Assembly (NCBI GenBank): GCA_963804495.1
Contig: CAWDQN010000010.1
Span: 258,265 to 322,264 of the forward strand
Length of the DNA: 64,000 nucleotides
From: an uncultured Alphaproteobacteria bacterium
Lineage (GTDB): Bacteria > Pseudomonadota > Alphaproteobacteria > Acetobacterales > Acetobacteraceae
Direction: 5' to 3'
Each line of letters starts with the position of its first letter. Position 1 is the stretch's first letter. The position numbers were made by a program, and so were the translations under genes. The notes beneath the pieces were generated by a model. That model was not told where the DNA came from. It saw only the letters and a program-made list of their open reading frames with translations, and searched no databases. Below, piece by piece: positions 1-3,940 of the stretch.

Positions 1-165
1 TGGATCGTCCGTGCGAGCGCCGATGTGAGGATGAAGCAAAAGAAGATCGACAAGAACCTTGATACGCGTCTGAACGCGCCGCGCCCCCTGTGCGGAACGG
101 GCCTCGATGTATTCAAGGATGGCATCGAGCTCGGCAAGAGCCTGAAGAGTATAGCGAAGCCTCAC
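1..165 (-). CDS. RelE/ParE family toxin (3' end beyond window edge)
   Basis: Not in ORF track; manual translation from GTG at 165: MRLRYTLQALAELDAILEYIEARSAQGARRVQTRIKVLVDLLLLHPHIGARTDDP, typical ParE N-terminus; GTGA overlap with upstream antitoxin stop. Confidence 0.85.
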   Translation of the reverse strand, partial: MRLRYTLQALAELDAILEYIEARSAQGARRVQTRIKVLVDLLLLHPHIGARTDDP

Positions 166-395
166 AAGCCGTATTTGCTCCACACGGCCCGCACCTGCGC
201 GTCAGTCGCAAATTCGTCACGGGCAGCGGCGGCTTTTGAGGCTGCAATCGAGGCGCGTTCATCGCTGGAAAGCTCAACCGGCACTGTCTCGTCATCCGTT
301 CCGGCAAGCCGGAGAACAACGCGGGCGATGTCGTCCTGAGCGTCCGGCGGGAGGCCACGCGCCGCTTCAAGTGCTTGTTCGAGAAGTCTTGTCAT
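162..395 (-). CDS. Putative antitoxin (addiction module protein) cognate to the ParE toxin
   Basis: 77 aa MTRLLEQALEAARGLPPDAQDDIARVVLRL...FATDAQVRAVWSKYGL; translationally coupled to toxin; ATG at 395 preferred over ORF-track start 449. Confidence 0.8.
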   Translation of the reverse strand: MTRLLEQALEAARGLPPDAQDDIARVVLRLAGTDDETVPVELSSDERASIAASKAAAARDEFATDAQVRAVWSKYGL

Positions 396-481
396 GGAGT
401 GATGATAACACGCCAGGCCAAAAAACCAAGCAGGGCGCGGTGACTCCATCTTGCGGAAAGTCGACCGCTCCGCGCGGCGGC

Positions 482-509
482 TGGTCGCACAACGCGCTTT
501 ATGGAAAGT
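482..509 (+). other. dif/pdif-like XerCD recombination site
   Basis: TGGTCGCACAA-CGCGCT-TTATGGAAAGT fits 11-6-11 dif layout; right arm resembles XerD arm TTATG(T/G)AAA(A/G)T, left arm resembles GTCGCATAA with one change; lies between two accessory modules. Confidence 0.55.
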
Positions 510-515
510 CAGGCC

Positions 516-1802
516 TTATGCGGATATCCCGCCATAGAGCCGTGCCGCCTCCGCAATCAGAGCGTCGAGCATCATAATGATCTTGGACGTATCATAGCTC
601 CCCGTTCTCAGGCTCTCGTCAGTCTGCCCCACAAAATGTCGCGCATAGGATTCCTTGTGCTCCAACGCGCCCTGCCAAGCGTCCACATCTTTTTTGTAAT
701 TGCTCCAGATTACTCTGGCTGGCGGATAACCGTTTAGTTTGAGGTCAAGATAGCACTCAATGGCGGCAGCGCGCCCGTTAATGTCGCAGTTGCTCAAGCC
801 TTCCGGCCCGAGCGCCGGAAACCGCCGCAACTCGTCAATGTCAGGCAGAAGCATCGAACGCATATTCCATGGCATTTTGAGGTCTTGGAGTTTGCGGTAA
901 GCATCCACACCCTCGGCGTCGTTATCGAGCAAAAAAAGCACCTTGTTCTGAATGTCGATCCTAACAAGGCCTTCAGCGAATTTGACCAGGTTGCCCGTTC
1001 CCCAGAAATGATGACGTTCATCGCCGTCGATAAACCGGAAGAAGTCGGCGACATCGGACCGCAGAATGTGGAGCGCCCGTCGAAGTATGCGGGCGTCTGA
1101 CGCGCCTTCCGTTGCAACTAGAATTGCTTGCTCACGTCGGGCGCCAGCACAAAACGCCTCACGATCAACCCAGCCTGCGTTTACGATTGGCCCGAATTGC
1201 CACACAACTTCTGCGTCGGCATTCTCGGGATTTAGGGCAAAGATTTGCAGCATCGATGACGGACTGAGAATGCATAGCTTTGCCGAAAGATAGCTGCTTT
1301 CAGACCAATAAAAATCTGATTTATCGGCCCAAGGAAGGCGAGAAAAGTCGCCGGCATGAGCGGCAAATCTGCCTTGTGCGACTGTAGCGCGGTCCGGAGT
1401 ATCCCTCTCAATGTATTCACTATTCAGGCTCGCCAGCGGATAGCGATTGGCAAGATCACAAAATTCTTCGAAAGTCAGCGGAAGCAACCCCTCTTCGCCA
1501 AAGCCGTATGTGGCGGCCTCGTCGAGAGCGTCTTGGTATTCTGCTTGCACCAAATCCAGAGTATGGCCCAGTACGTGCAGCCGCGGCAGCACCCGCGATA
1601 ATGGCCGCACAAACGCCAGCTCGTGTTCTGCTAGGTCGGCTTCCTCCTCCGGGTTCTCCTCATAGTATTTATAGTCTATTGCGCCGCTACGCCGCCGCGT
1701 TAAATCTGCCTCTTGAAATATGAACCCGTAGTCATTGCCCATGTTATTTTTGGCATAATCAAGGGAGACACCGCTTATCTCAAATGTTATCCCGGTTCCC
1801 AT
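516..1802 (-). CDS. HEPN/Toprim-associated N-terminal domain + TOPRIM domain protein (candidate defence nuclease)
   Basis: N-term MGTGITFEISGVSLDYAKN resembles proteins annotated HEPN/Toprim-associated; C-term half has TOPRIM acidic motifs VATEGASD and LLDNDAEG; visibly lower GC than the core genes. Confidence 0.7.
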   Translation of the reverse strand: MGTGITFEISGVSLDYAKNNMGNDYGFIFQEADLTRRRSGAIDYKYYEENPEEEADLAEHELAFVRPLSRVLPRLHVLGHTLDLVQAEYQDALDEAATYGFGEEGLLPLTFEEFCDLANRYPLASLNSEYIERDTPDRATVAQGRFAAHAGDFSRLPWADKSDFYWSESSYLSAKLCILSPSSMLQIFALNPENADAEVVWQFGPIVNAGWVDREAFCAGARREQAILVATEGASDARILRRALHILRSDVADFFRFIDGDERHHFWGTGNLVKFAEGLVRIDIQNKVLFLLDNDAEGVDAYRKLQDLKMPWNMRSMLLPDIDELRRFPALGPEGLSNCDINGRAAAIECYLDLKLNGYPPARVIWSNYKKDVDAWQGALEHKESYARHFVGQTDESLRTGSYDTSKIIMMLDALIAEAARLYGGISA

Positions 1803-1850: not shown

Positions 1851-2396
1851 TCATGCCACCAATCGCGAAATCGTGCTGTGGCTGACATTATACGATCTGG
1901 CGATCTCCCGCATAGGCTCGCCCGCATCACGGCGACGTAGCGCCTCCTTGATCTGGTGCGGCGTCATCTTCGGCGGGCGGCCCATCTTCACGCCCTTGGC
2001 GATGGCGCGCTTGCGGCCTTCGCCGGTGCGGGCGCGGATCAGCTCCCGCTCGAACTCGGCCAGCCCCCCCAGCACGGTAAGCATGAGGCGGCCGTGGGCG
2101 GTCGTGGTGTCGGCCCAGGTGTCGCCGAGGGAGCGGAAGCCGGCCTTCTTGGCGGCGATGCTGGCAAGCGTGTTGAGAAGGTCGCGGGTCGAGCGAGCCA
2201 GGCGGTCGAGCCGCGTGACCATCAGCACGTCATCGGCGTCGAGCTGGTTGAGCGCGCGCCGGAGCTGGCTGCGGTCGGTCTTGGCTCCGCTCGCCACCTC
2301 GCGGAACACCTGGCGCGCGCCCGCCGCCCGGAGCTGGCGCACCTGGGCGTCAACGCTCTGGCCGTCCGTCGAGACGCGCGCATACCCGTAAATCAT
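1851..2396 (-). CDS. Serine recombinase (resolvase/invertase family) with C-terminal HTH
   Basis: MIYGYARVST catalytic Ser motif, VTRLDRLARS, LAEFERELIRART..G, C-terminal HTH (REIARSYNVSHSTISR). Confidence 0.95.
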   Translation of the reverse strand: MIYGYARVSTDGQSVDAQVRQLRAAGARQVFREVASGAKTDRSQLRRALNQLDADDVLMVTRLDRLARSTRDLLNTLASIAAKKAGFRSLGDTWADTTTAHGRLMLTVLGGLAEFERELIRARTGEGRKRAIAKGVKMGRPPKMTPHQIKEALRRRDAGEPMREIARSYNVSHSTISRLVA

Positions 2397-2400
2397 GAGT

Positions 2401-2475
2401 TCGTTATGCACCTAGTTTCTGCAACGGAAAAGCCCTTAAATTTCAAGGCTCCGTTTTTGGTTCATAATTTTTGAG
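2401..2475. promoter_or_regulatory. Putative res site / resolvase promoter region
   Basis: AT-rich tract directly upstream of the resolvase (GTTTCTGCAACGGAAAA...CCGTTTTTGGTTCATAA); position typical of res sites. Confidence 0.4.
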
Positions 2476-2980
2476 TATTGGGACCATGACGGCATCGTCC
2501 TGGGTTAGCCCTTTGGATTCGCAAAGCCTTGTTCTGGTTGGCTTGTTCGCTCATCCCCAAAGTTGCCGTTTGATGGACGACTGCGGGTTGGACATATCCA
2601 GCGGACATCCACGAACCGCTTCCAGGAATAAATTCTGGATACGCGTAAAGAATGGTCACATGAGCACTCGATGACAAACCTCCTTTCACAACATTGGCAC
2701 GGGTGTATGGGTCAACGCCCCTCAGAGGCTCACCGACAGCACTCCTGGCAACGGTTCGCAATTTGTCCACAGAAGCGAAACACGAAACAACCCGCCTGAT
2801 CCGCTGACGTTCGGTCGAGTGGCGTGGATCAGCTTACGTCACGTCCGCATCGCGATGCCCTCCGCCTTTCCGTCGCCAACCTTCAACGCGTCCCTATCCC
2901 TCCGACCCCGCATATCGAGGCACGCACGCTTTCTGAATCTCCCTTGCTACCTGCTCCCGGTTGTAGTAGGAATATAATCC

Positions 2981-3583
2981 ATGAACGCCCAGCCCCACCC
3001 CGCCACCCCCAACCTCGCCCCAGCCTTCGGTGGTACCAGCGTCGGCGTCATCCTCCGCAATCTCGCCGCCCTCATCGCCCGCCGCTTCCTGAACGATCCG
3101 CTTCTCGCCGTCCTCATCATCCCCCTGTGGCGGCACCTCACCCGCGCCGCCGCCCGCCTCGACCGCCTGCGCGCCCGCCTCGCCGCCGGTCCCATCCCGC
3201 CGCCAAGGCCCCGCGCCAGCAACCACAGCGGCCCCCGTCGCCGCTCACCCTTTCCCACCACCAGCGCCTGGCTGATCCGTGCCCTCGGCGCCGAGGCCGC
3301 CGCCTGCGCCGCCCAACTGCAGGCGCTGCTGGCCGATCCCGCCGCCGCCGACCTCCTCGCCTGCACCGCCGCCCGCCGCACCCTTGCCCCCATCCGCCGC
3401 ATGCTCGGCCTCCCGCCCGCGCACCCACCCCGCCCCATCATCCCCGCATGCGTCGCCCCCGCGCCGCGACACCGGCCGCCGCCCCGGCCGGCCCCGATCC
3501 CGCACCACCCCACGATCGACCCGCGTCCCACCGCAAGCCGCCGCCCCTGGTGGCTGCCGCCGCCCCGCCTGCGCTCCGGCTGA
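2981..3583 (+). CDS. Hypothetical Pro/Arg/Ala-rich protein
   Basis: 200 aa ORF with ATG after AT-rich leader and strong C bias; amphipathic segment LWRHLTRAAARLDRLRARLAAG; no family recognised with certainty. Confidence 0.55.
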   Translation: MNAQPHPATPNLAPAFGGTSVGVILRNLAALIARRFLNDPLLAVLIIPLWRHLTRAAARLDRLRARLAAGPIPPPRPRASNHSGPRRRSPFPTTSAWLIRALGAEAAACAAQLQALLADPAAADLLACTAARRTLAPIRRMLGLPPAHPPRPIIPACVAPAPRHRPPPRPAPIPHHPTIDPRPTASRRPWWLPPPRLRSG

Positions 3584-3940
3584 CCCGGCCTCCCGCCCAT
3601 CGCCCTGCAACCTCCTGCCGTCCCGCTCCGGGCGTCGTCCCCCCGCGCCCGCGTTCCCGTCGGTGCCGTCGAGCCCGGTTGCCACCCGGCGGTGATGGTC
3701 ATGGCCAATGAATGGTGAACCGCCGCGGAGATCACCCTGCCGCGACCGGGATAACCGGAATCCCGCGAGCTGAGCGCGCCGCCCAACCCGATGCCCGGCC
3801 GCAGCTTGTGACCGCCGCCCCGGCGATCCGCGGCGGCGTTTCCGTCATTCGGGGTTCCCTCCGTCGTCGCGTTGCCTATGCTGCGCAGGATCACCGGTCC
3901 CTGGAAGCCCCGGGCCTTGGAACTGAGCGAAGTACAGAGC

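Follow-up and report, generated by a model that had tools for sequence, protein, structure and literature searches.

A HEPN/Toprim-NTD1 and Toprim gene in a small low-GC insert of an Acetobacteraceae genome: a candidate one-gene conflict nuclease

Can a single gene with the metal-binding motifs of a Toprim nuclease, standing in a patch of low GC and without an ATPase partner, be a defence system by itself? The question is raised by a gene at positions 516-1802 (minus strand) of a 64,000-nucleotide (nt) stretch from an uncultured alphaproteobacterium of the Acetobacteraceae (assembly GCA_963804495.1, contig CAWDQN010000010.1, positions 258,265 to 322,264 of the forward strand). This whole stretch is called the window below, and positions are counted from its first letter. 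An initial annotation, made from the letters without database searches, had seen here an uncharacterised TOPRIM protein and had inferred a single-gene defence system whose N-terminal domain takes the place of the usual ATPase sensor. Sequence comparison places the gene in the HEPN/Toprim-NTD1 + TOPRIM family (PF18871). The reading we prefer, with a probability of roughly 55%, is that it encodes a stand-alone two-domain conflict nuclease: a one-gene abortive infection or defence system in which NTD1 would serve as sensor or lock.

The protein and its two domains

The open reading frame (ORF) is genuine and intact. Its 428-amino-acid (aa) product begins MGTGITF, and relatives align with it over the full length (residues 1-422) at up to 88% identity. 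Conservation was judged in an alignment of 58 diverse relatives, with identity down to 27%. All 16 invariant family positions are preserved in the window protein, and M1-G2 is conserved in at least 90% of the family, which places the start at the ATG at 1802 and not at the upstream in-frame TTG at 1823. The features of the gene are:

516-1802, minus strand: full coding sequence of the HEPN/Toprim-NTD1 + Toprim protein, 428 aa, with the stop codon at 516-518
1128-1802, minus strand: N-terminal domain, PF18871 HEPN_Toprim_N, acidic, mixed alpha/beta, residues 1-225
519-1127, minus strand: Toprim domain and C-terminal helical extension, residues 226-428
1107-1109, minus strand: codon of E232, predicted catalytic Toprim glutamate of TEGASD, invariant in 58 sequences and aligning with the Glu of the OLD 'LVEG' motif
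918-926, minus strand: codons of D293-N294-D295, predicted metal-binding DxD of Toprim, invariant in 58 sequences and aligning with the OLD DxD

The PF18871 model (HEPN/Toprim N-terminal domain 1) matches residues 1-225 with 185.1 bits (E 2e-54; gathering cut-off 25), over profile positions 1-223 of 223, i.e., the whole model. A PF18871 match above the gathering score and, colinear with it, a C-terminal Toprim domain with Glu and DxD are the marks of the NTD1 + TOPRIM family, and both are present. The family is large (more than 1,000 clusters at 90% identity; 1,397 representatives at 50% identity) and uniform in length, its members having typically 390-445 aa. NCBI names it 'HEPN/Toprim-associated domain-containing protein'; named members are 60-88% identical to the window protein over the full length, share its architecture, length and motifs, and show no structural difference from it. 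HEPN/Toprim-NTD1 itself was defined computationally by Anantharaman, Makarova, Burroughs, Koonin and Aravind in 2013 (PMC3710099), where the NTD1 + Toprim architecture was described as a conflict-system protein, and where NTD1 was also found fused to two HEPN RNase families and one Mrr DNase. The word "uncharacterised" is thus apt as regards experiments but not as regards the catalogues, in which this is a named Pfam and NCBI family; the novelty that it implied was overstated. Predicted to encode a DNA- or RNA-cutting enzyme without a partner, and belonging to a family that travels on mobile DNA close to established anti-phage systems, the gene is a reasonable but unsurprising phage-defence candidate from a protein family catalogued in 2013. 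What is added here is the OLD-like affinity of the Toprim domain, a compact and confident structural model, the limits of the insert in which the gene lies, and the defence and mobile contexts of its relatives, including an integron cassette.

The N-terminal domain is acidic, as first noticed, with an isoelectric point of 4.4 and a net charge of -18 over residues 1-195. The protein contains two R-x(4-6)-H strings, R70-H76 and R238-H245, in neither of which is the His conserved in the family alignment; it therefore has no HEPN motif, in agreement with the initial annotation, and no HEPN Pfam model matches it. By these two marks it falls outside the HEPN superfamily. Nor is there a match to the ATPase models AAA_15, AAA_21 or SMC_N, the N-terminal half being occupied by PF18871 instead; the OLD and GajA proteins that neighbour family members in other loci do give such matches.

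In the C-terminal half, the EGASD and DND motifs on which the TOPRIM call had been based are borne out by conservation: seven positions, in TEGASD (E232, G233, D236) and DNDAEG (D293, N294, D295, G298), are invariant in 58/58 sequences. Beyond these motifs, residues 226-428 contain conserved positions in IECYLD (E349, D353) and at K383 and Y403. No Pfam Toprim model is significant on the window protein itself. Among the relatives there are weak matches to Toprim_2 (24/58), Toprim_4 (15/58), Toprim (9/58) and OLD-like_TOPRIM (PF20469; 7/58), the last not extending to the window protein. The family C-terminal profile was therefore compared by hhalign with each of four Toprim group alignments built from fetched genomes: OLD-family (27 sequences), DnaG (13), RecR (14) and DUF4435/AriB-like (5). 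OLD was the best partner, with a score of 37.6 (P 5e-5, probability 68%), followed by DnaG at 18.5, DUF4435 at 17.4 and RecR at 14.4; the known Toprim families score at most 20 against one another. The register puts "LIvTEGsSD" on OLD "viLVEGxtE", and "ifDNDaeG" on OLD "itDxDxxxG". With the motifs aligned in this way, "OLD-type Toprim", as the initial annotation had it, appears a reasonable label for the catalytic domain, and among the four groups compared the OLD-family Toprim seems to be its closest relative.

AlphaFold2, supplied with the 58-sequence alignment, predicts a single compact unit (mean predicted local distance difference test score, pLDDT, 95.3; predicted template modelling score, pTM, 0.92). 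NTD1 is modelled as a beta-hairpin followed by helices (pLDDT >90), and it is followed by a Toprim core of Rossmann-like fold and, at the C-terminus, a long helix. The initial annotation had asked for Foldseek and profile searches of both domains. By profile these give PF18871 and an OLD-like Toprim; by structure they give no significant neighbour, the full-length model matching nothing in PDB or BFVD at E <0.01, and only generic Rossmann-like and Toprim cores beyond that. The Toprim domain of M. tuberculosis topoisomerase I is among the PDB results (probability 0.75), and the best BFVD matches are phage DnaG-type Toprim domains (E 0.04-0.1), which at E 0.04 or weaker are suggestive only. No OLD structure is among the 50 best Foldseek matches listed, and no structural relative of NTD1 was detectable in PDB or BFVD.

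Distribution and contexts of the family

The distribution of the family is rare and patchy. PF18871 was found in 2/401 alphaproteobacterial species genomes; for comparison, DUF4435 occurs in 5/151 Pseudomonadota genomes and the OLD-like Toprim in 34/151. Among 21 close relatives it occurs in two, this genome and one of the 20 others, and the latter's homolog is just 34% identical, which points to independent acquisition. The gene was acquired horizontally in this genome.

All contexts open to judgement are mobile elements or defence islands, without any neighbour being conserved from one to another. The initial annotation had named beforehand the neighbourhoods of homologs as a test of its proposal, and the outcome favours it: they include AbiE, Gabija, OLD and type I restriction-modification genes, an integron, a prophage and conjugative plasmids.

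One defence island is that of six Rhizobiaceae, in which AbiEi and AbiEii are followed by the family member (after a 3-nt gap) and a 296-aa protein, with GajA-GajB within 7 kb in five of the six. PADLOC matches in these loci reach E 1e-122 for AbiEii and 1e-237 for GajB. In Rhizobium wenxiniae (locus L008, 8203-16004) the AbiE, NTD1-Toprim and Gabija genes form one same-strand island, and the layout, with Gabija in most of the loci, recurs in L002, L005, L006, L007 and L011. The 296-aa protein has a faint match to Tox-ART-HYD1 (ADP-ribosyltransferase) and no confident family; it could be another defence candidate.

Other islands differ in content. In Salinicola avicenniae (locus L030, 3105-11287) a closely spaced same-strand run consists of a ParE pair, an OLD nuclease, an N6/N4 methyltransferase, an 882-aa ResIII helicase and, after a 4-nt gap, the family member; this may be a composite defence operon, and the element, which also carries TrbL, a relaxase and an integrase, is conjugative. 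A Bradyrhizobium island bounded by an integrase contains AbiEii, CTD6-MC2-AAA_23, a helicase and a PIN toxin-antitoxin pair, and a Vibrio integrase island contains HetE-N and PIN-TPR-GreABC. In Methylobacterium the neighbours of the gene are a methylase on one side and recombinases on the other. An imperfect direct repeat, about 100 nt long, lies on either side of the family member in Methylobacterium sp. Leaf466 (locus L031, 9880-10000 and 11285-11400), reading …GGAATTGCG…CCTTCGTGACGTTGGTC…GATCGTACG…CCGAGG; it may be a target duplication, or else a small gene in two copies that marks an insertion. A degraded copy is present in another alphaproteobacterial genome (locus L045, 1498-2067), where NTD1 survives as a truncated piece of 189 aa, close to a second fragment, and the member is pseudogenised; judged by eye, the sequence directly upstream of it appears to encode the C-terminal part of HsdR from a type I restriction system.

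Two contexts bear directly on whether one gene is enough. On a Methylobacter sp. chromosome (CP197401.1; locus L025, 6814-9406), a 63%-identical member is the first cassette of a chromosomal integron: the gene next to it, divergently oriented, encodes an integron integrase (TIGR02249, 451 bits; cut-off 265), some 60 nt separate the cassette gene from a GTTAGGC attI core on its upstream side, and behind the stop codon comes an attC-like palindrome, about 71 nt in length (GCCTAAC...GTTAGC). Small same-strand ORFs downstream resemble further cassettes. In an Aeromonas Mu-like prophage, a member stands as an extra gene on the opposite strand, with the tape-measure gene on one side and tail genes on the other. 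These two copies strongly argue that one gene suffices for whatever the family does. A conserved small partner encoded upstream was considered and rejected: ORFs of 94-103 aa in that position, seen in Vibrio and Aeromonas only, have no significant family match, and there were none in the other contexts examined.

Plasmids suggest another role for the same nuclease, namely competition between mobile elements or their maintenance: it might destroy incoming elements (exclusion) or kill cells that lose the element (addiction). Members are found on 53 of 72,556 plasmids, 22 of these conjugative, as well as in several conjugative elements; an E. coli IncX7 conjugative plasmid has one next to an AbiEii-family gene, and in the window a toxin-antitoxin pair adjoins the gene. 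Phage genomes, with a partial match in one of 50,697 records, are almost free of the family, which is consistent with such a role. A cognate antitoxin or immunity gene is not conserved next to family members, however, and members are also found as a prophage extra gene and in chromosomal defence islands beside AbiE and Gabija. We regard this role as rather unlikely.

Several alphaproteobacterial conjugative elements raise a further possibility. In these the gene follows ParB_N, DUF7146-Toprim_3 and YAcAr, with DUF736 also in the region; genes of this set are typical of transfer-leading and establishment regions. The gene might then serve anti-defence or establishment, for example as an early-expressed nuclease or decoy that disables the immunity of the recipient. 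Against this, the same region carries genes of defence type nearby (a Lit-type Peptidase_U49 and T5orf172), and copies elsewhere are found in an integron, in a prophage, and with AbiE on one side and Gabija on the other; moreover, the literature links NTD1 to toxin-type nucleases (PMC3710099). An anti-defence role is accordingly given very little weight.

The insert in this genome

In the window the gene lies in an insert whose GC content, as first observed, is low: 53.3% for the gene and 56.5% for the insert, compared with 67.7% for the 4.15-Mb genome. The features around the gene are:

1-2871, no strand: part of the low-GC insert inside the window; the insert totals 4,263 bp and starts 1,392 bp left of the window start
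1851-2411, minus strand: small serine recombinase of resolvase/invertase type, 186 aa (PF00239 E 4e-40, HTH_7)
482-509, plus strand: dif-like 11-6-11 sequence, 28 nt, separating the toxin-antitoxin pair from the Toprim gene; within chance expectation
162-449, minus strand: putative antitoxin ORF, 95 aa, overlapping the start of the ParE gene; no family match
1-183, minus strand: 5' part of a ParE-family toxin gene (PF05016); the full gene (104 aa; locus L014, 14869-15183) extends left of the window

The limits of the insert are given by synteny with two genomes of the same genus (G010 and G003), which breaks at -1392/-1427 relative to the window and resumes at 2871 (G010) and 3933 (G003); the insert is absent from close relatives. 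A SpoU-type methyltransferase gene borders it on one side and, on the other, a conserved Pro/Arg-rich ORF with an amidase gene behind it; inside are two overlapping ORFs without family match, the ParE pair, the Toprim gene and the resolvase. Terminal repeats, inverted or direct, are absent. At the syntenic spot G010, the closest relative, has an IS200-like Y1 transposase (locus L039, 10732-11265), which makes the site an insertion hotspot. Further right, G010 has an additional 723-aa ORF, putatively chemoreceptor-like. For this genome, then, the gene marks a small insertion hotspot between the SpoU-type methyltransferase and amidase genes, and compared with other NTD1 + TOPRIM members the host context of this copy, a small low-GC insert with ParE and a resolvase, is new.

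The flanking toxin-antitoxin pair and resolvase of the initial annotation are both real: a ParE toxin with its overlapping 95-aa ORF lies downstream of the Toprim gene on the same strand, the pair sharing 80% DNA identity with a RelE/ParE locus from a Defluviicoccus plasmid, and the 186-aa serine resolvase, again on the same strand, ends 48 nt upstream. There is also, as had been said, no ATPase gene adjacent to the Toprim gene in the window, and no conserved partner gene among relatives; the insert contains no helicase gene.

The dif-like site is another matter. The sequence at 482-509 is indeed there, but it differs from E. coli dif at 7/28 positions, and the mismatch thresholds that it passes are passed by seven further sites in the genome as well. 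Cumulative GC skew at the scale of the contig shows no terminus at it, the insert contains no second such site, and in 17 other loci inspected by eye none was seen downstream of the family member. A search pattern based on the site has no other match in the genome, but this test is circular. A Xer/dif (pdif-type) module was rejected, the site being no better than seven other loci, without a skew terminus and without recurrence, and its match to dif is best treated as chance. Apart from it, what the initial annotation had observed was confirmed; its interpretation is partly supported.

The resolvase next door suggests a role in the housekeeping of mobile elements, with the Toprim domain acting in priming, nicking or strand passage during recombination, replication or transfer, for instance by assisting the resolvase. 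The 48-nt spacing on one strand, the recombinases present in some other contexts, and the DnaG-primase and topoisomerase Toprim domains that are the nearest structural matches (all weak) would fit such a role. A resolvase is not a conserved neighbour, however: PF00239 is found in 2/145 neighbouring proteins of family members. A Pfam scan of the window protein found neither the zinc-binding or RNA-polymerase domains of primases nor topoisomerase domains, its Toprim profile is nearer to OLD nucleases than to DnaG or RecR, and copies in an integron cassette and as a prophage extra gene argue for a self-contained accessory function. Housekeeping is thus quite improbable.

The state of the insert suggests a less active role still: in this genome the gene could be silent cargo, without current function in a decaying mosaic. 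The insert is a patchwork without terminal repeats, degraded family copies exist elsewhere, and a promoter and terminator scan at the Toprim gene gave nothing above shuffled expectation, leaving no convincing promoter upstream. At its left end (locus L014, 13669-14678; 1.3 to 0.3 kb left of the window) two ORFs of 208 and 149 aa overlap in different frames; the former starts like a signal peptide, neither has a Pfam or NCBIfam match, and they may be one frameshifted gene. The Toprim ORF, in contrast, is full-length, keeps every invariant family position, and is 88% identical to its closest relatives across its whole length. Loss of function in this copy is therefore considered unlikely.

Positions 2824-3711 of the window have 78% GC, a strong C-over-G skew, and overlapping long ORFs on both strands. 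One of these (2981-3583, plus strand) is a 200-aa Pro/Arg/Ala-rich ORF without family match, whose DNA is 83% conserved in G010. Elsewhere in the genome (contig C3 of G000, 158957-159154) an open frame of 648 aa encodes a distinct protein of the OLD-like Toprim type (PF20469, E 8.5e-14).

A proposed nuclease with its own sensor or lock

Each of these alternatives fits fewer of the contexts than does a conflict nuclease, for which we infer the following nuclease activity, gating by NTD1, substrate and defence phenotype. The gene reached this genome as part of a mobile insert, small and mosaic in make-up. Its C-terminal Toprim domain would be a Mg2+-dependent, probably two-metal, phosphodiesterase using E232 and D293/D295. 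The acidic NTD1, packed tightly against the Toprim domain, would keep it inactive or untargeted until a cue of infection or invasion is sensed. Once activated, the enzyme might cut host and/or invader nucleic acid, for which AriB, P2 Old and retron Eco2 suggest, by analogy, tRNA or DNA as likely substrates; the outcome would be growth arrest or abortive infection, protecting the clone or the mobile element that carries the gene. As to substrate, the immune Toprim effectors retron Eco2 and AriB cut tRNA (PMC12409363, PMC12916289), and so, reportedly, does P2 Old. Together with the fusions of NTD1 to HEPN RNases, this makes RNA or tRNA at least as likely a target as DNA.

Among known systems, OLD nucleases (P2 Old in class 1, GajA in class 2, retron-associated proteins in class 3) are a first point of comparison: like the family, they have a Toprim nuclease domain with Glu and DxD and are carried on mobile elements and in defence islands, and P2 Old works as a single gene, as the window gene would. 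They have an N-terminal ABC ATPase, however, where the window protein has NTD1, with no detectable relationship between the two. Since this defining ATPase is absent, the window protein is not an OLD-family member, and unlike class 2 and class 3 systems the gene has no UvrD-like or retron partner. In particular it is not Gabija: the PADLOC search that the initial annotation had proposed found no match to a GajA model, or to that of any known system, at E up to 1, and there is no UvrD-like GajB in the insert.

AriB of PARIS, a DUF4435 Toprim tRNase, is a second point of comparison. Like the window protein, it is a Toprim effector without an ATPase domain, presumably inactive until triggered, and by analogy a shared output, tRNA cleavage, is plausible. 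AriB has AriA as its partner, whereas regulation in the window protein, if any, would lie within the same polypeptide. PF14491 matches neither the window protein nor any of the 58 relatives, the hhalign score with DUF4435 is 17.4, and there is no AriA or other ATPase as a neighbour.

Retron Eco2, a reverse transcriptase-Toprim fusion, is a third: like the window protein, it is a single polypeptide combining a Toprim domain with a regulatory module that is not an ATPase. There the Toprim domain is caged by multicopy single-stranded DNA (msDNA) made by its own reverse transcriptase, and cuts tRNA after release. The window protein has no reverse transcriptase and no evident non-coding RNA.

Several points weigh against a conflict nuclease. 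Several contexts belong to one spreading island, which leaves about ten independent ones, counted without a background rate. The conjugative-element neighbours (ParB_N, Toprim_3, YAcAr, DUF736) are found just as typically in anti-defence or establishment regions. For OLD, the hhalign probability reaches only 68%. The best Foldseek match in PDB has E 0.017, and neither domain has a significant neighbour among solved structures, so that the Toprim fold rests on motifs and profile comparison; a PDB sequence search, with the single sequence and with the family profile, likewise gave no match. PADLOC-DB 2.0 contains no matching model for the window protein. The published fusions of NTD1 to HEPN and Mrr domains were not recovered, either by a region-restricted search or with an N-domain-only profile and a length filter, both of which returned only Toprim-type members and fragments. 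Finally, in our literature search the domain and family were named only in the 2013 survey, and no experimental test of any member was reported. Searches of the window protein against NCBIfam and PHROGs gave no match and nothing useful, respectively.

Beyond the conflict-nuclease reading as such lies a more specific proposal: that NTD1 is a structurally new, nucleotide-independent sensor, which directly recognises a cue of infection or invasion and thereby releases an OLD-type Toprim nuclease (perhaps a tRNase) within one polypeptide. This is possible rather than probable, and is put forward tentatively. If true, it would define a minimal Toprim immune module that can travel as one integron cassette, and would add a third way of controlling such nucleases, beside the ABC-ATPase switches of OLD, Gabija and PARIS and the msDNA cages of retron Eco2.

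If the family is a working one-gene defence, control of OLD-type Toprim effectors would be possible with neither ATPase nor reverse transcriptase nor partner protein, and the family would offer a compact module of about 430 aa for studies of sensor-gated nucleases. The contexts found here supply distinct alleles for such work: the copy between AbiE and Gabija, the integron cassette, the prophage extra gene and the copy on the E. coli IncX plasmid.

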